DNA of 20,000 bases from Deltaproteobacteria bacterium (GTDB lineage Bacteria; Myxococcota; JACRCW01): positions 49,439 to 69,438 of the forward strand of contig JACRCW010000076.1 in assembly GCA_016218805.1 (NCBI GenBank), in the 5' to 3' direction. The translations under genes and the position numbers were made by a program. Shown piece by piece: positions 11,856-19,267 of this stretch; position 1 is the first letter of the stretch, and every line of letters begins with the position of its first letter. The notes under the pieces are model-generated. The model was not told the DNA's origin. It searched no databases and saw only the letters and a list, made by a program, of their open reading frames with translations.

Positions 11856-12068
11856 GCACACTACAGCGCTTCACGCCGTCGAGAGTACTGTGCATTCGGT
11901 TCGGAATCCAAGATGTGTCAGACTGGTGGAGGCCCCGGTATTGGGTCGCGTTGGGACAACATCGATCCAACGGATGTAGACCATATTTGGTGTATGGGGT
12001 GGTGCTTCCTGCGATTGGGTGGAGTGGGGGCAGCGGTTTGTCTGTATCCAGTTGAAAGGGGGCACGCG

Positions 12069-12758
12069 ATGGTGAGGTGCACTTTGACCGCCGCGGTCTT
12101 GGCTGTGCTGTCTGGCTGCCGCTGCGATTGCGACCCGGCGGGGCCATTTGGAAACGACATGGCGGTTCCGCCTGAGCACGCATTCCTTGCCGAGTTCGCA
12201 GACAGCGCGAACTTCGGCGGTCTCTTCTCTGTCAGCAAGGCAGTCGCCTGCGCCGAGCAGCCGACTTCAGACCCCTCGTGTGTCTGGATCGGCGAACGGG
12301 TCAACATTGAGCCCGTCGAGGTCTATTTCGGGGTCCCATCCACCTCGACGTACCATCCGGCTGGCGATTTCTATCGGGCGCTGCGCATGTACACCGGTTC
12401 CGAGGACGTGCGGGTTTATTTTGTGTTGACGGCTAGCCCCATCTCGCTAGACGCATCCGTTCCCGGCACGGTCTGTGGTGTCAGCACCGATGGGATTATC
12501 AGCAGGCAGAATGACGCACCTCCCTGGGTGCTGTCCCCAAACGGACAAATGGCGGTGGACTCCAGCTGCATCACCAGCCAAGCGCGCAATATTGGCGATG
12601 GGGGAGTGAACGAAGAGGGCCGCACACTTCGAGAACTGGTGGAAGGCAATCCGTGGTGCACGTTGCCTGTGTCGGTGGTGGAGGGGGATTTGTCCGCTTC
12701 TGCAGCGAGAGTCCCAACGAGGGGCGGCTTGGATCCGAGTGGCGGTTTCTGTCGCTGA
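12069..12758 (+). CDS. Cys-rich hypothetical lipoprotein in a lower-GC patch
   Basis: ATG at 12069 preceded by GAAAGGGGG. Signal MVRCTLTAAVLAVLSG-C with lipobox LSGC. Several further Cys residues. Codon usage has more A/T-ending codons than flanking genes. Confidence 0.65.
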   Translation: MVRCTLTAAVLAVLSGCRCDCDPAGPFGNDMAVPPEHAFLAEFADSANFGGLFSVSKAVACAEQPTSDPSCVWIGERVNIEPVEVYFGVPSTSTYHPAGDFYRALRMYTGSEDVRVYFVLTASPISLDASVPGTVCGVSTDGIISRQNDAPPWVLSPNGQMAVDSSCITSQARNIGDGGVNEEGRTLRELVEGNPWCTLPVSVVEGDLSASAARVPTRGGLDPSGGFCR

Positions 12759-12861
12759 ACCAGCCCCCATCCCGCGCCTTTCCTGAACAGGCTGTCACCC
12801 GCTCCCGCCGGCGGCAAAGGCGGACCACTACCCACATCTGACGGCACAGAGGCAGACGGCG

Positions 12862-13168
12862 GGCGGTCGGCGCGCAACCGTAGGCCGGTCGAACAGCGAC
12901 TCCGGCCCATCGAACACCGATCACCTGCCCTCCGGCCCCCCACCGCCGGCACCCCGGAGCGCGCGCGAGGCCGCTCGGAACCCCACTGCCGGGTGCCCGG
13001 AGCCGCTCTGCAGCCCACCCGGACGCCCAATGCAGGGTGCCCGGAAGTGGTCTGCAGGACCCTCCGGCGCCCCGTTGCAGACCCTCCGGAAGCGCTCTGC
13101 AGACCCCCCGGAAGGCCGCTGCGGAGCCGTCGGACCTACATTTCAGAGGGGTCGATGGGCGATTTCGG
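12862..13168. repeat. Degenerate tandem array, ~14 units with 22-bp period (consensus approx. NNNNN-YCGGA-N7-TGCAG), intergenic
   Basis: YCGR motif at 12867, 12889, 12910, 12932, 12954, 12975, 12997, 13019, 13041, 13064, 13086, 13108, 13130 and 13152 (spacings 21-23, mostly 22). Best units: 12992 ggtgcccggagccgctctgcag, 13014 cccacccggacgcccaatgcag, 13036 ggtgcccggaagtggtctgcag, 13058 gaccctccggcgccccgttgcag, 13081 accctccggaagcgctctgcag, 13103 accccccggaaggccgctgcgg. Confidence 0.85.
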
Positions 13169-13320
13169 GTGGAAAACCGCCCGCCGATTGGCCTGCAAAC
13201 CCATCCCGACCCCCATCCGCCGGATGACGGAGCAATTCCGGGTTGTGCGCGGGTGAGCCTGGCTGGCAGCTTCCCCCGCCCAAATCAGGAAGCACCACAG
13301 ACCACGGGAGGGTCGCCACC

Positions 13321-14106
13321 ATGCAGCTCGCAGAGATCAGTCAGTTGGACCTGTACTTCCTTGCTCAACTCGTCGGCAGCGCCCTGAAGGACCACCACGG
13401 CGTCATCCACCGCTTCATCAAGGAGGAACACGGCGAGCACTGGTTGGATGCCTACAACGCCGGCACCCGTGACTTCCGGGCGTCCGTGGATTCGGCCATC
13501 AAAGAGGAGACGGAGGCAAATGCTGCGGTGGGGGAGCAGGCGGCGCTTCGCGGCAAGTTCACGTCATGGCGGCGCCTTTTGGAGAACTGTGCCAGGCGGG
13601 CGGGCGTGCAGACCGAGGTGGACCGGCTGCTGAAGGCAGCGGGCTACGGTGACGGGACCCCCCGCAGCACCAAGGAGTTCAAGGATTTCCTGGTGATCGT
13701 GGGTCCCAAGTTGAAGGTGCATGAAGCCCGCTTCCGCAAGCTGGGCGCGTCTCCCAAGGCGCTGGCGTTCCCGGGGACGATGAGCGTGGCGCTGGACACG
13801 GCCGGTGCCAAGGTTGTCAAGGAGGTGGCAGAAGCCCGGACTGCGCGGGAAGCAGTGCGCACCCAATACGACGCGATGATCACCCAACTGCGCCTGGTGG
13901 ACCACGCCGCGCAGAGTGCCAGCGCCGATGCGGCGCTTGAGGAGGACAAGGAGGCATTGGCCAGGGCCAACGCGTTGCTGAACCTGCTGGACGCCGCCGA
14001 GGGTCAGGCCAAGGTGGAGGCGCGCAAGAAGGCGACTGAGGAGGAGATCCCGGAGAGCATCACTCTCCCGGTCAACCCGGATGCCGCCACGCCCGAACCG
14101 GCGTGA
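13321..14106 (+). CDS. Hypothetical all-alpha protein (261 aa) with an internal duplication
   Basis: ATG at 13321 with GGGAGG RBS at 13306-13311. Amphipathic helices throughout, no signal peptide or TM segment. Two similar halves (LKDHHGVIHRF/LKVHEARFRKL, AIKEETEANAA/VVKEVAEARTA, RRLLENCARRA/LRLVDHAAQSA). Acidic Pro-rich tail. Confidence 0.85.
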   Translation: MQLAEISQLDLYFLAQLVGSALKDHHGVIHRFIKEEHGEHWLDAYNAGTRDFRASVDSAIKEETEANAAVGEQAALRGKFTSWRRLLENCARRAGVQTEVDRLLKAAGYGDGTPRSTKEFKDFLVIVGPKLKVHEARFRKLGASPKALAFPGTMSVALDTAGAKVVKEVAEARTAREAVRTQYDAMITQLRLVDHAAQSASADAALEEDKEALARANALLNLLDAAEGQAKVEARKKATEEEIPESITLPVNPDAATPEPA

Positions 14107-14200
14107 CCGGGCAGACCGCGCGGAAGCGCACCGGATAGGGGAGGCCGCGTTTCCAACGCTTCAGCGCGCCCCCTCCCATTTGGCTGCATTCCCCCGGCGG
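14107..14200. terminator. GC-rich hairpins between convergent genes (possible termination or RNA stability elements)
   Basis: gcgc-GGAA-gcgc tetraloop hairpin at ~14118-14129 and an imperfect stem gggagg...cctccc at ~14139-14177. No clear U-tract. Confidence 0.3.
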
Positions 14201-17200
14201 TCACGGCATGGCAACGAACCGCGCCCCGGCCGTGGCCGAGTTCCCGACGTCATCCATGATCTCCACCTGCCATTGGTAGCCCGTTCCGGACGTGAGCGCC
14301 GGCGGTGAGGCGCGGCCGTCATAGTTGTACGTCACCGACAGCGTGCCCGCGGCGAGGTCCCACGCGTCCCAGAACCGCGGGTATCCGGCGTCCGGCGACA
14401 AATGGACGTAATACGTATGCACCGTGGGCACCGGGTTGGGCGCCAGCCAGGTGAAGGTGGGCACCAGCGTGCCGGCCGCGTTGCCCAGCGGGGAAACGGG
14501 CCGGGGCAGAACCAGCGTCTCTCCCACGGTCCCCGTGACCCGCTCCACCGTGCCGTCGTCATACAGCACGTTGAACTCCAACGTGGCGCCCGAGGCGGTC
14601 TGGCTTCCATCCCAGGAAGAGGCCATCCACGTGGGTGGCGCCCAGTCCTGCGGCCCGCGGGCCAGGGAGAGGTCCACCGGCAGCCCGCCCAATCCGCCCG
14701 CCTGCTGGCTGACCGCCACCGGCTGGCGGGCCTGCCCGGCCACCTCCAGCTGGAGACCAAACCCCTCATTGATGAACGCCGTGCCGGTGTACTCCGCGTT
14801 GTGGCGCGTCATCACGGCGGCGCGGGTGTCCGGGCCGGGCATGGTCAGCGCGGGCAGCGTGGCGTCACCGTTGATGGCAACGGTGCGTCCCTGCAGGCCG
14901 GTGGCGCCCACCAGGTCCCCGCGGTCCAGCACGCCGTCGTGGTTGGTGTCCAACAGCGCCACCACCGAGTACCGCCCCGGCTGCACGCCAGGCACGCTGA
15001 ACGGCACGGTGCCGGAGGCGCCGGGGACGCGCGTGAAGTAGTCGCCATTGGGGCCGCCCTGCAGCAGGACATACAGCGTGCCGCCCGCGCCGCCGGGCAG
15101 CGTGACGGTGCCCTGGACGGTGTTGCCCACCGGTGCGGGGCCCACGCGGAAGCGCTGCGGCTGGCCGGTCGGGCCTTCGCGCCCCTGCACCAGGGGTGCG
15201 GCGGTGACCCAATATTCCCCGTCCGCCAACGGGGCCACCATGGCGGCGTGCGCGCGGCCGGCGGGCACGGTGCGGACCCAAATGGATTCACCCGGTCCCG
15301 CGGGCGTGTCGCGGCCCACGTAGAGGCGGAACGCGTCGGCCATTTCGCGCTGCATGCTGTCCAAAGGGGACTCAAACCGGACCATGGCAACGCCGGGCGC
15401 GGAGTTGGCCCACACCCAGCGCGGCGGGGGGAACGCCACCGGCCCCGGGTCCGTGATGGTGACGTCAGCACCGGTGACGGAGGAGGACAGGTTCACCTGC
15501 GCCGTTCCCGTGGGGCTGGAGGACACGGGGAACTGCGAGCCCAGCGTGTCCACCCACGCCACCACGGTGTAGTTGCCCGGGCCCCAGCGCCCGCGCAGGT
15601 GGTAGGGGCCCGGTTCGGCCAGGCTGGTGGTGGCCATCAAACCATCACCGGCGGCGCCCCACGTCAGGCCCACGTAGATGCGCCCGCTGGCCCCGCGCGT
15701 GTAGTTCACCGTGCCGGACACGCTCCGCACGGTCCCCACCACAGTGACGGTGGCTGTGGCCGCTCCGCCCGCGTGCGTGGCCACCACGTGGTAGCTGCCC
15801 GTGCCGGACGCCGGCGCGGTGTACACGCCCGCCGCGGACACCGTCCCGCCGGCAGCGCCCTCCGTCACCGTGAAGGTCACGGTCTTGTCCGTGGAGCCGG
15901 TGACCAGGGTGGTGAACGCCTGCGTGTCACCCAGCGGCACGGTTGCCAGCGCGGGGTGGATGGCAACGGTGATGGTGGAGGTGACGTGAACCACCGCGGT
16001 GCCGCTGGCGGAGCCGTCCGCGGCGCTGGTGGCGCGCACCGTGTAGTCCCCCGGCGTGGTGGGTGCCACGTAGTGCCCGTTGGCGTCCACCGTCCCGCCG
16101 CCGGTGCCATCCACGCTCCAGGTGACTGCGGTGTTGCCGCTGCCGGTGATGTCGGCGCGGAAGTCCGCCGGTTCGCCCGGGGCCAGGGTGGCGGCCGCCG
16201 GGGCAAGCCGCACGGACACCGGCGGCTGCAGCAGCACGCGCACCGTGGCCACGGCGCTCTTGTTGGTGTCCGCGCTGGACACCGCCCGCACGTGGTAGGT
16301 GCCCGGCGTGGGCGGTGCGGTGTACGTCCCGTCCAGCGCCACCACGCCGCCGCTGCTCTCCACCACCGACCAGGTCACCGCCGTGTTGCCGGACCCGGTG
16401 ACGGTGGCGGCGAACTTCTGCAGCTGGCCGCCGCCCAGGACCACATTCAGCGGCGCCAGGACCACTTGCACCTGCGGAGCATCCGTGACGGTGACGGTGG
16501 CGCGCGCCACCTGGTTGGCATCCACGCGCGCGGCCGCCACCACGTGGAAGGTCCCGGTGACGTTGGGCGCCGTGTACAGCCCTTCCGGCGTGACGGTCCC
16601 GCCGCCGGTCTCCTCCACGCTCCAGTCCACCCCGCCGCCGCCGGTGACGGTGGCCAGGAACACCTGCTGGCCCAGCCGGTTCACGGTGGCGGTGGCGGGT
16701 TCCACGGTGACCTGCACCGGCAGGGAGAACGCCGCGCCCACGGCGGCGTAGTTGCCGTCCTGGTCGCTGGCCTCCAGGCGCCAGCGGTAGCGGCCGCCGG
16801 CCACCAGCGGTTCCATGGCGCGGCCGTCAAAGTCGTAGGTGAAGGTGGTCATGGACGGGTCCAGCGAGTCCACGCGCCACAGGTCCCCGTTGCCGCCATC
16901 ACGGGACACGCTCATGGCGTAGTGCAGCGCGCCGGGAGCGCCCGCCGCGGGCGCCCACGCAAACTGCACCGGCGCCGCCACCGTCCCCTGCGGCGAGGTC
17001 AGCGTGGGCAGTTCCAGCACGCCTGACACGCGCGGGTGCAGCGTCACCACCGTGTTGTCAGCCAGCGTGGCGTCCACGTCATAAACGTCACCCACCACGG
17101 GGCGCCGCAGGCCGGCGTAGAGGTCCGTGACCACCGACAGCGCCCCAAACTCCGCATCCGCCACGCCCAGGTCCCGCGGTGGCGCCGCCTGCGGGCCGCC

Positions 17201-19180
17201 GGTGAGCACCGCCGCCACCACACGCTGGAGGTTGGACGCCGCGCCCAGGTGGACAAAGTAGCCCTCCGTCCCGTCGTCAGCCCAGTGATAGGTCTGCGCC
17301 AGGGGGAGCGCGTCCCCAGCCGGCAGCCGCAGGGTGGGCACGGTGGCGTCCGCGCCGGAGACCGTCACCACGGGCCGGCTGGGCACGGTCGTCGGGTCAC
17401 CGGGGCCCATGGTGCCGTCCTGGTCCTGGTCCACAAACGCAAACACGTACCAGTTGCCGTCAAACGCGCCCGTGATGCTGAACGCCTGCGCGCCGGCGGG
17501 CTGCACCACGCGCTGGACGAACGCGCCCGCCGCCTCCATGAACATCACGACGTACAGCGGCCCGGTGGCGGTGATGCCCGTGAGGTCCACCACGCCCTGC
17601 ACGCGGTGCCCGCCGGTGCGCGGCCCGGTGGTGACGGGCGGCGAGGCCGCGGACGGCGCGCCCTCCGTCCCGTGGTTGTACGCGCGCACGCGCACGTAAT
17701 AGCTCCCGTCCGCCAGCTCCAGCACGGCAAACGGCGCGGTGGTGGGCAGGCGCCGGCTCGCCGCAATGGTGCCAAACGACGACGAGGTGGACGCTTCCAC
17801 CAGCACCTCGTCCGCCAGCATGCGCCCGTTGTTGTCCCGCGCCACGGTCCACCCGGCAATGATGCAGCCCTCCGCCGGGATGACCATCTCCAGGCCCGCG
17901 GCCCCGGGCGCCACGCTGGGCGGGGCGTTCATCTGGACCACCAGCCCGTTGACGTCGTTCCCCTGCAGGTCGAACTGCACCTCGCCCATCGGGTCCACCG
18001 CTTCGTTGAACGCGCCGGTGTCCTGCACGTCCATCCACGCCGCCACGCGCATGAAACCGCCGCGTTCAACGCCGCGGATGGTGAACGCGCCGGGCGCGTC
18101 CAGCGCGGTGCCGCCCATGGGCCGGCGCCGGTCATTGTCAAACACCACCACAAAGACCCGGCCCGTGTCTGACCCGGTGAACTGCACGGTGCCGGACACG
18201 GAGGGCAGCACCACCTGGATGGTGGCCACGTCGCTCTTGGAGGGGTCCTGTTCGCTGGTGGCGCGCACGTGGAAGCTGCCGCCCAGGTACGGCGCGGTGT
18301 AGGCGCCCAGGGCGGTGATGGTCCCGCCGTCAGGTTCCACCACGCTCCACGTCACGGCGGTGTTGGACGCGTTGGTGACGGTGGCCATGAACGTCTGGTT
18401 CTCCCCGCGGCGCAGCTCCACCTGCCGCGGGTTCACCGTCACGGAGACCTGCGGGGTGGAGGTCACGGTGATTGTGGCCTCGCCAGACGCGGTGGGCGCA
18501 ACGCGGCTGGTGGCGCGCACGTGGTAGGTCCCCGTGGTGCTCGGGGCGGTGTACAGGCCCGCGGCATCCACCGTGCCGCCGCCGGTCTCCACCACGCTCC
18601 AGTCCACCGCGGCGTCACCGGTCCCGGTGACCACCGCCAGGAACGCCTGCTGCTGGTCCGGGTTCAGCGCCGCGGTGGCGGGCTCCACGGCCACCGTGAC
18701 GTTGAGGACCGTGCCGCTGCTGCCTGCCCCCGACGCGCTCACCGCACCCGACGAGGCGGCCCCGCCCGACGACGACGCCGCGCCTGAGGAGGCGACGCTG
18801 CCCGAGGACGCGACGCTGCCCGACGAGACGATGCTGCCCGAGGACCCGACGCTGCCCGACGACACGACGCTGCCCGACGACACGACGCTGCCCGACGACA
18901 CGACGCTGCCCGACGACGCGGTCAATCCCGAGGTGGCCGCCGCGGAGGAGGCGCCGCTGGAGGCGGCCAGGGAGCTGGCCGTGCCGGACCCGCCGCTGGA
19001 GGAGCCGCCACCCGAGCTTCCCCCGGACACCGACCCGCTGGAGGACGACGACGAGGATGCCCCGGAAGAGCCGGAGGATGAGCTGGAGCTGCCGTTGTCG
19101 TCGTCATCCGACGGATTGGGGCAGCCCACCAGGGCCAGCAGGGAGAGGGAGAGGACCAGCCGCGAAGTCACCGTGCGCAT
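14201..19180 (-). CDS. Large surface lipoprotein (~1659 aa) with a Ser/Gly linker, six Ig-like (Big_2-type) repeats and two copies of an FN3/beta-sandwich module
   Basis: Signal MRTVTSRLVLSLSLLALVG-C (lipobox LVGC) and a Ser/Gly-rich spacer. Six repeats of V.V.P....L......F.A.VTG..N.AV.WSV.E..GGTV...G.YTAP...G.YHV.A.S. Duplicated module starting VSGTV.(F/Y)T....GR(V/I)(F/Y)V. DxDxDG-like motifs DQDQDGTMGPGD and DTNHDGVLDRGD. Confidence 0.9.
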   Translation of the reverse strand: MRTVTSRLVLSLSLLALVGCPNPSDDDDNGSSSSSSGSSGASSSSSSSGSVSGGSSGGGSSSGGSGTASSLAASSGASSAAATSGLTASSGSVVSSGSVVSSGSVVSSGSVGSSGSIVSSGSVASSGSVASSGAASSSGGAASSGAVSASGAGSSGTVLNVTVAVEPATAALNPDQQQAFLAVVTGTGDAAVDWSVVETGGGTVDAAGLYTAPSTTGTYHVRATSRVAPTASGEATITVTSTPQVSVTVNPRQVELRRGENQTFMATVTNASNTAVTWSVVEPDGGTITALGAYTAPYLGGSFHVRATSEQDPSKSDVATIQVVLPSVSGTVQFTGSDTGRVFVVVFDNDRRRPMGGTALDAPGAFTIRGVERGGFMRVAAWMDVQDTGAFNEAVDPMGEVQFDLQGNDVNGLVVQMNAPPSVAPGAAGLEMVIPAEGCIIAGWTVARDNNGRMLADEVLVEASTSSSFGTIAASRRLPTTAPFAVLELADGSYYVRVRAYNHGTEGAPSAASPPVTTGPRTGGHRVQGVVDLTGITATGPLYVVMFMEAAGAFVQRVVQPAGAQAFSITGAFDGNWYVFAFVDQDQDGTMGPGDPTTVPSRPVVTVSGADATVPTLRLPAGDALPLAQTYHWADDGTEGYFVHLGAASNLQRVVAAVLTGGPQAAPPRDLGVADAEFGALSVVTDLYAGLRRPVVGDVYDVDATLADNTVVTLHPRVSGVLELPTLTSPQGTVAAPVQFAWAPAAGAPGALHYAMSVSRDGGNGDLWRVDSLDPSMTTFTYDFDGRAMEPLVAGGRYRWRLEASDQDGNYAAVGAAFSLPVQVTVEPATATVNRLGQQVFLATVTGGGGVDWSVEETGGGTVTPEGLYTAPNVTGTFHVVAAARVDANQVARATVTVTDAPQVQVVLAPLNVVLGGGQLQKFAATVTGSGNTAVTWSVVESSGGVVALDGTYTAPPTPGTYHVRAVSSADTNKSAVATVRVLLQPPVSVRLAPAAATLAPGEPADFRADITGSGNTAVTWSVDGTGGGTVDANGHYVAPTTPGDYTVRATSAADGSASGTAVVHVTSTITVAIHPALATVPLGDTQAFTTLVTGSTDKTVTFTVTEGAAGGTVSAAGVYTAPASGTGSYHVVATHAGGAATATVTVVGTVRSVSGTVNYTRGASGRIYVGLTWGAAGDGLMATTSLAEPGPYHLRGRWGPGNYTVVAWVDTLGSQFPVSSSPTGTAQVNLSSSVTGADVTITDPGPVAFPPPRWVWANSAPGVAMVRFESPLDSMQREMADAFRLYVGRDTPAGPGESIWVRTVPAGRAHAAMVAPLADGEYWVTAAPLVQGREGPTGQPQRFRVGPAPVGNTVQGTVTLPGGAGGTLYVLLQGGPNGDYFTRVPGASGTVPFSVPGVQPGRYSVVALLDTNHDGVLDRGDLVGATGLQGRTVAINGDATLPALTMPGPDTRAAVMTRHNAEYTGTAFINEGFGLQLEVAGQARQPVAVSQQAGGLGGLPVDLSLARGPQDWAPPTWMASSWDGSQTASGATLEFNVLYDDGTVERVTGTVGETLVLPRPVSPLGNAAGTLVPTFTWLAPNPVPTVHTYYVHLSPDAGYPRFWDAWDLAAGTLSVTYNYDGRASPPALTSGTGYQWQVEIMDDVGNSATAGARFVAMP
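18790..18915 (-). repeat. In-frame 18-bp tandem repeat (7 units) encoding SSGS(V/I)(V/A/G)
   Basis: Plus-strand unit acacgacgctgcccgacg is identical three times (18862-18915), with four variant copies at 18790-18861. Confidence 0.92.
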
Positions 19181-19267
19181 GGGGAACCCCTGTTCAGGAG
19201 ACGAAAACGGAGCGGGAATCTGCCCCACGGCGCGGCCAAAGGCCATGCCTGCGGTCACGCCCGGGAC

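Follow-up and report, generated by a model that had tools for sequence, protein, structure and literature searches.

Partition centromeres are built from phased repeats, with a 43-bp period in F sopC and 11-bp iterons in R1 parC; REP and REPIN units are GTAG-led hairpins whose RAYT partner is an HUH enzyme; and in type III toxin-antitoxin loci the toxin gene is preceded by a repeat array, from which a terminator separates it. Plasmid iterons are 19-22 bp long, and the R6K pi site is 22 bp (PMC5397143). BrickBuilt of Porphyromonas gingivalis consists of imperfect tandem repeats of ~23 nt that are dispersed over intergenic regions and vary in copy number; the available part of its report describes one repeat sequence with a shared leader and tail and terminal inverted repeats, and makes no mention there of a partner gene (PMC4596501). 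The TIGR-Tas report, in its available part, describes 36-nt dual-spacer units (PMC12045711).

The locus described here lies in the window, i.e., the whole 20,000-nucleotide stretch of DNA that was analysed, and is small (~1.3 kb), combining a 22-bp phased array (12862..13168) with the gene of a helical protein (13321..14106). Beyond what the earlier note had reported, this genome contains dozens of such arrays, and the window array belongs to an array-gene module that recurs. New findings are the census of many families within a single genome, the existence of lone copies, the dependence of the period on the protein family and the comparison of turnover rates; no description of the module or its proteins was found in the largely open-access literature searched.

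The module could be assigned to none of the iterons, partition centromeres, BrickBuilt, REP/RAYT or TIGR systems. It resembles the iterons of R6K pi, F RepE and pPS10 RepA in having two-turn direct repeats beside a cognate gene, but the arrays here are GC-rich and chromosomal, may flank the gene on either side, and occur dozens of times with different units. Additionally, the partner protein matched neither a Rep family nor a winged-helix domain, no Rep was found in the six other window proteins scanned, and no AT-rich unwinding region lies beside the array (local GC 0.62-0.67 across 12001-14000). Partition centromeres are similar in their phased arrays able to wrap or align a protein, the DUF6261-like arrays described below having periods of 42-44 bp, but differ in that the 21/22-bp units here are not more palindromic than shuffles overall; no Pfam match to ParA, ParB, ParM or ParR was obtained among the seven window proteins scanned, both neighbours included. 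The earlier note had proposed a protein-binding array of iteron- or centromere-like type; protein binding is retained as the best reading, at somewhat below even confidence, whereas membership in either class is not, as no Rep or Par gene was found.

To the extent that its report is available, BrickBuilt is alike in its dispersed intergenic tandem repeats of ~22-23 nt, but the arrays here have many unit sequences, no common ends that could be seen and a recurring partner gene. The arrays share with REP/BIME/REPIN-RAYT elements the many lone copies near 3' ends, the small gene-linked fraction and the rarity in divergent regions, but their units do not have the form of GTAG-led hairpins and their partner protein is no HUH enzyme; each array contains one GTAG, on the minus strand, with no hairpin after it by inspection. 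The resemblance to TIGR arrays raised in the earlier note was not sustained. A conserved/variable array beside one compact protein gene is common to both as far as the available account of TIGR-Tas goes, but the units here are 22 nt rather than 36 nt and not fixed in length, the variable stretches are those of a degenerate repeat rather than unique spacers, lag 36 in the window array gives z 1.0, and a Nop domain was found neither by Pfam nor as a Nop structure among the fold matches listed. The model of a sister-family protein aligned with TasR over 56 residues at Z 8.0, which is noise level. Type III toxin-antitoxin loci differ from the module, which shows 0 terminator-like sites, an array downstream of the gene in 19 of 29 modules and no toxin family match. 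As the earlier note had stated, the array is not a CRISPR: the period is 22 bp throughout the window array, a layout of repeats and separate unique spacers is absent, and Rfam gave no CRISPR match.

The window array and its partner gene

The array (12862..13168, plus strand) comprises 14 units of 21-23 bp with a consensus near YTGCAGACCCYCCGGAAG. The ~14-unit phased array described in the earlier note was confirmed by autocorrelation, with a peak at lag 22 (z 9.3; matched by 0 of 1000 dinucleotide shuffles) and a second at lag 44 (z 7.4), and by Tandem Repeats Finder, which called a period of 22/44 at 12982-13122. Fourteen YCGR anchors extend from 12867 to 13152 at spacings of 22, 21, 22, 22, 21, 22, 22, 22, 23, 22, 22, 22 and 22 bp. 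Seven TGCAG-like cores (12987-13120; spacings 22, 22, 22, 23, 22 and 22 bp) begin 12 bp past the CCGG anchors, in agreement with the second core that had been placed 11-12 bp on in the central units. The most regular part is the centre (12960-13135; z 7.9), the left end is weak (12862-12970; z 3.5, 17 of 1000 shuffles), and 13125-13260 has no significant 22-bp period (553 of 1000 shuffles as good), so that the fading of conservation towards both ends was likewise reproduced. Among eight central units CGG is kept in 8/8 and TGCAG in 5-8/8, most remaining columns agree in ~4-5/8, and the unevenness across columns is modest (permutation p 0.03). The second-last unit contains an ACCTAC motif (13134..13139, plus strand) that also occurs in five of seven other arrays examined of the same protein family; counted over family A1, defined here as the 22 aligned proteins of the partner protein's family, it is present in 6/8 arrays where 0.05-0.16 would be expected in each, these arrays being related and not independent.

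Three of the six reading frames are stop-free across the array, which would fit a repeat within a coding sequence or the decayed remains of a heptad-repeat gene, and stops therefore cannot prove that the array is non-coding. The non-triplet period with its 21- and 23-bp units argues against coding, as does the GC3 of 0.70-0.76 in all six frames, which lies below the 0.84-0.92 of four neighbouring genes; with the same pattern at dozens of intergenic loci, a coding origin is very hard to credit. The array is therefore probably non-coding, and the earlier note's view that it is not a protein repeat holds. For an array RNA, no conserved structure was found by Rfam, which returned only chance-level matches without a meaningful score, or by folding, which was ordinary on both strands (z -1.8). 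The assembly at the locus is backed piecewise by contigs from one groundwater study, which are not independent support because the main run possibly represents the very sample from which the assembly came.

The leader between array and gene (13169..13320, plus strand) is likely to contain the promoter and has a Shine-Dalgarno sequence, GGGAGG, at 13306-13311; a scan of the leader for promoters, strict sigma-70 included, and terminators gave 0 sites, and a sigma-54 promoter was rejected because a GG-N10-GC sequence that includes a good -24 element could not be seen by eye. The partner gene (13321..14106, plus strand) encodes 261 aa predicted to form an all-helical bundle with a flexible Pro/Glu tail, a signal peptide being absent by inspection. 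Its AlphaFold2 model is a confident all-helical bundle (pLDDT 95.5), in which the longest helices have 52 and 62 residues. The protein matched no Pfam or PADLOC family and had no credible match in NCBIfam or PHROG, and fold searches against PDB and BFVD gave nothing above noise (the best Z, 8.9, is noise for helical bundles). Avd and Xcc0516 were rejected as fold matches (Z 7.7-7.8, noise range), and the fold searches matched the model to no known DNA-binding fold. Among 1.84 billion representatives the protein had 24 matches, the query itself included; the nearest Atlas clusters are unnamed and mostly from Myxococcota, pointing to a myxobacterial host, and family A1 is present in 3/401 genomes of the phylum, all in one class. 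No longer fused forms were found in a weak search and no viral relatives; seven viral pattern matches were unrelated repeats, and a 3500-aa match (P0010), a cadherin-repeat protein, was left out.

Immediately 5' of the array lies a low-GC (0.61) lipoprotein-like orphan (11913/12072-12758, plus strand), a paralog of which (66% identical; G000:C70:8263-8940) adjoins a different helical-family gene. On the other side, a large lipoprotein-like gene with many Ig-like domains (14201-19258, minus strand) is convergent with the partner gene and includes a Ser/Gly-rich linker with 18-bp repeats at 18747-18920. A possible lone repeat unit stands just past the partner stop codon (14110..14129, plus strand); 16 of its 20 bases match an array unit, and 5 of 2000 shuffles reach 15/20, but the match is uncertain and not significant against the flanks of other modules. 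This unit and the loci L029 and L043 prompted a solo-LTR model with the gene embedded in a direct-repeat array, which was rejected as only 2 of 29 modules match on the opposite flank, approximately the chance level.

Array-gene modules across the genome

The earlier note had proposed that regions upstream of homologs be searched for similar arrays. All eight relatives of the partner protein with enough flank have a 21/22-bp array, either upstream or downstream. The array is upstream in L002, L006 (of which L032 is a duplicate), L007 (weak), L008 and L030, and downstream in L029, where a few units are also upstream; L029 and L030 are close paralogs with arrays on opposite sides of the gene. In the C19 copy the gene is truncated at its 5' end and the array lies ~0.9 kb upstream of it; in C76 the array is fused to the last 33-36 codons of the gene. 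L031 has no array downstream, its upstream flank being absent from the sequence, and L004, a weak fragment match, is without an array. At A1 loci the orientation of the array relative to the gene is constant, upstream or downstream, and units of 21 and 22 bp are mixed inside single arrays. Most arrays of A1 relatives have a TGCAGACCC or GACCC core while the proteins are only ~30-40% identical to the window protein: TGCAGACCC-like cores are common to the units of the window, C76, L029, L030, L006 and L007, and GACCCC to those of L008 and C159. This core conservation is partly circular because the units were anchored on that consensus. Separately, L006 and L008 share a conserved promoter-like element and a long stem-loop ~590-460 bp upstream of the gene, with array units that differ completely.

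Based on gene calls from a codon model built in this analysis, 121 of the 1475 intergenic regions that are 150 bp or longer are periodic, with 25 at a period of 21, 21 at 22, 9 at 42, 17 at 43 and 5 at 20/23/41/44. In total, 77 of the 121 have a period of 20-23 or 41-44, and 73 one of 21-22 or 42-44, the next most common lag accounting for 8 regions. A non-triplet census of the genome gave 24 loci at period 22 and 20 at 43, to which periods of 20/23/44 add 5 and other lags 6. Unit sequences vary widely between arrays, and many sister arrays are near-perfect tandems without spacer diversity. Non-triplet 22/43/44 arrays number ~7.6 per Mb here, 1 in 400 kb of a second genome (G082) and 0 in 319 kb of a third (G003); the array expansion is lineage-specific because these samples hold far fewer. 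A strict three-core pattern was found in 0/401 genomes, this genome included, and is therefore uninformative.

Seventeen array neighbours chosen by eye encode uncharacterised, Ala-rich, signal-less proteins of 209-251 aa; with their homologs, the array-neighbour proteins form about ten families, each with its own unit sequence. In 29 array-gene modules the array is upstream in 10 and downstream in 19. For an array-independent test, 11 full-length homologs were picked by protein similarity alone, and 6/11 had a flanking array compared with 59/1320 size-matched genes (p 3e-6); of the remaining five, three have an array 0.8-1.5 kb off and two are without any. Approximately 55 further arrays are lone, i.e., without a partner gene, although this list probably includes some coding false positives of period 21; several match gene-linked arrays unit by unit. 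Lone arrays are nearer the 3' ends of genes (37/55), and arrays are depleted in divergent intergenic regions (10/75 vs. 358/990, p 2.5e-5).

Several candidate generalizations were discarded. A mirror orientation by C/G skew failed because the sense strand is C-rich in 8/10 upstream but also in 8/19 downstream arrays. Palindromic units are not the rule (91 21/22-bp units, 4.88 vs. 4.73 in shuffles). A hotspot for foreign-gene capture was dismissed as array flanks are not lower in GC (76 arrays vs. 917 regions, p 0.2), and a link to Uma2 was seen in only 2/33; the genome as a whole has 35 Uma2 endonuclease matches, mostly away from arrays. AAA_21 domains near arrays (6/32 at threshold vs. a 5.4% background, one of the six being an ABC transporter) are suggestive only. 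Stand-alone AAA_21 ATPases are often defence-associated, and genes for such proteins occur at or near the arrays G000:C1, C10, C96, C141, C155, C167 and C59.

The conserved period and its possible reader

A sister family, typified by the protein at C133, goes with a different period. Relatives of the C133 protein occur in 8/301 genomes; among 21 loci, a 42-44 bp array reaches a score of 53/88 or more in 10 and is visible by eye in one more, and units mostly differ between homologs. The family weakly matches DUF6261 (PF19775; 10/18 members, best E 3e-6), the best DUF6261 score in the genome being 21.8 bits at C54, below the cut-off of 27, and its proteins are predicted to be all-helical too. 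DUF6261 proteins are like the partner protein in being of similar size, all-helical and signal-less, but only the sister family matches PF19775, and weakly, whereas 0/22 members of the window family do; profile similarity between the two families is absent (probability 0.5%). The Atlas offers a weak lead to a DUF6261 fold, with a TM of 0.45 in the case of the window protein and 0.50 in that of a sister family. The window and C93 proteins each lead to an Atlas cluster that is described identically (255 aa, 108 members), suggesting that these two families may share a fold. DUF6261 is named once each in two Streptococcus papers, in the parts of them available.

The period follows the protein family, at 21-22 in A1 and 42-44 in the DUF6261-like family. 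What is conserved is therefore the period and not the sequence: two or four helical turns at ~10.7 bp, with a tolerance of one base, which bears out the earlier note's equation of 22 bp with two helical turns. As this period is conserved, one-base tolerant, family-dependent and independent of the side of the gene, a phased DNA platform is the simplest reading. The array is the non-coding half of a two-part module and may well serve as a helically phased DNA docking platform, where the adjacent helical protein would assemble at a density of one binding unit per two helical turns; docking is our leading interpretation, though a tentative one, and the presumed binder is the partner protein itself. 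The placement of arrays on either side of the gene (10 upstream, 19 downstream, L029 and L030 opposite) suits a DNA site, and the mixing of 21- and 22-bp units favours DNA phasing because phasing would tolerate it and precise RNA processing would not. The array-independent test, the concentration of periods at 21-22 and 42-44, the cores common to arrays of distant A1 proteins, the period kept in L006/L008 and the ordinary RNA folding also speak for docking. More broadly, the likely role of the arrays in this genome is to dock proteins, as platforms in an undescribed two-part module that would spread by itself and whose output could be self-regulation, self-propagation or a sequestered stress or defence factor. 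Against docking, the proteins are not basic (family members are neutral to slightly acidic, with D+E at least equal to K+R in 18/22), no DNA-binding fold was matched, substitutions do not significantly spare the core columns, array turnover is not faster than that of silent sites in two of five pairs, unit sequences mostly differ among homologs of the DUF6261-like family, five of the 11 homologs in the array-independent test lack an adjacent array, ~55 arrays stand without a gene and no mobilising enzyme was identified; additionally, the shared cores could be plain common descent.

A different reading is that the array is transcribed and acts as RNA, i.e., as a scaffold, antitoxin or guide that is cut to 21-22 (or 43-44) nt and bound by the protein. 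A length of 22 nt equals two turns of an A-form helix, the orientation of A1 arrays relative to the gene is constant on either side, and the depletion in divergent regions together with the placement of lone arrays near 3' ends (37/55) implies that many arrays would be transcribed. This reading is nevertheless unlikely, given units that vary from 21 to 23, no conserved RNA structure found, no terminator between array and gene, many arrays that are near-identical tandems without spacer diversity, and units inherited in register between copies rather than added at one end.

Within one genome, approximately ten unrelated-looking versions of one design are found, in which an orphan helical protein is joined to a repeat whose length is fixed and whose letters are free. 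It is conceivable, at somewhat less than even odds, that these are widespread, undescribed minimal elements, each encoding one helical-bundle protein that recognises its cognate array, as DNA or RNA, by means of a fixed ruler of 21-22 or 42-44 bases, and that specificity can shift freely from one family to another; the array would be the mobile, persistent half, and the pairs an orthogonal protein-array toolkit in genetic conflict or genome organisation. If each protein does read its own array, the modules would constitute a new family of orthogonal protein-nucleic acid pairs, would provide a function for a large class of uncharacterised proteins, perhaps including DUF6261, and would explain many dispersed 21-23 and 41-44 bp minisatellites of bacteria.

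Turnover, copying and spread

In five pairs of loci, identities of the array and of fourfold sites were 0.86/0.92, 0.63/0.81, 0.69/0.80, 0.73/0.69 and 0.71/0.44, where unrelated arrays reach 0.60-0.69 (null). In the second pair (L006/L008), array identity equals the unrelated level while fourfold sites (0.81) and flanks (0.77-0.87) are retained and the period is kept; in the window/C76 pair the two measures are level (n 16 for fourfold sites), and in C21/C42 the array is kept better than silent sites. Array turnover is therefore faster than that of silent sites in three of five pairs, with the period retained. When core columns are defined independently, the substitutions that separate copies show no significant avoidance of them (4/14, p 0.26; 24/63, p 0.37), suggesting that selection on particular cores is weak. 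The arrangement of conserved cores and variable spacers, which the earlier note had compared with processed small-RNA arrays such as TIGR, is probably the decay of a formerly uniform tandem repeat, because many sister arrays are near-perfect tandems and substitutions do not significantly avoid the cores.

Such turnover, near or above the silent rate, with weak core selection would also be expected of neutral minisatellites, hitch-hiking with accessory genes, if a mutational bias underlies their size of 21-22 bp. In L008 and C19, adjacent units have been homogenised in blocks, as slippage would do, and array density is lineage-specific. The strong, repeated tie to one class of orphan genes, across about ten families and several genomes, and the family-specific period, neither with an evident neutral cause, make this explanation improbable. 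Under the docking interpretation, the units would be rewritten by slippage and conversion, and a fixed protein footprint would keep their period constant.

Arrays recur as discrete copies of 200-300 bp at unrelated loci with 70-95% identity. Pairs whose units correspond one to one, although their flanks have little homology or none, include C93/C135 (87%), C133/C78 (95%) and window/C76 (73%), and further matching sets are C159/C67/C19, C15/C75/C83 and C64/C20. In 10 aligned pairs the homology is confined to the units and the ends are ragged, with no terminal inverted repeats, shared leader or tail, or target duplications seen by inspection. A further copy of 12928-13118 (~91% identity) was detected on a contig of genome-level depth and was not found in the assembly. 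Judged by their units, lone arrays are copies of gene-linked arrays; modules may duplicate and then lose the gene, or arrays may be copied alone, which would account for lone arrays close to where ordinary genes have their 3' ends.

Discrete copies of this type could also mark where non-autonomous mobile elements end, a transposase or host protein binding them in trans and the helical gene being a habitual passenger. At G000:C54:78377-78601 (minus strand), a DUF6261-like gene and its array are immediately followed by a Y1 (RAYT-type) transposase gene, one of two Y1_Tnp genes in the genome, none of which is in the window, and a 21-22 bp tandem array forms the left end of what we take to be an IS21-like element in G082 (L073:13306-13580). 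Set against this are the absence of visible terminal inverted repeats and target duplications in the 10 pairs, the lack of a match in this 92%-complete genome to the one IS21-like query from G082 (itself without a Pfam match), and a period that follows the protein family, which a passenger would not set; mobile-element ends are therefore doubtful, at about the level of an RNA array. An origin by reverse transcriptase was rejected as no RVT_1 was found in the same genome.

Other features were observed at or near individual arrays. A separate GTAG-led, REP-like palindrome of 45-60 bp lies near G000:C137, C99, C164, C75, C80 and C91. At G000:C1:10885-11142 and C73:23066-23160 the core flips about a central palindrome, giving a whole-array dyad, and G000:C96:17000-17488, downstream of a helical gene, is a higher-order array with a period of ~132 bp (3 x 43-44). 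Finally, at G000:C113:34000-35400 a helical-gene module lies between CRISPR-like repeats and a gene whose N-terminus appears, from its motifs, to resemble a Cas3 HD domain.
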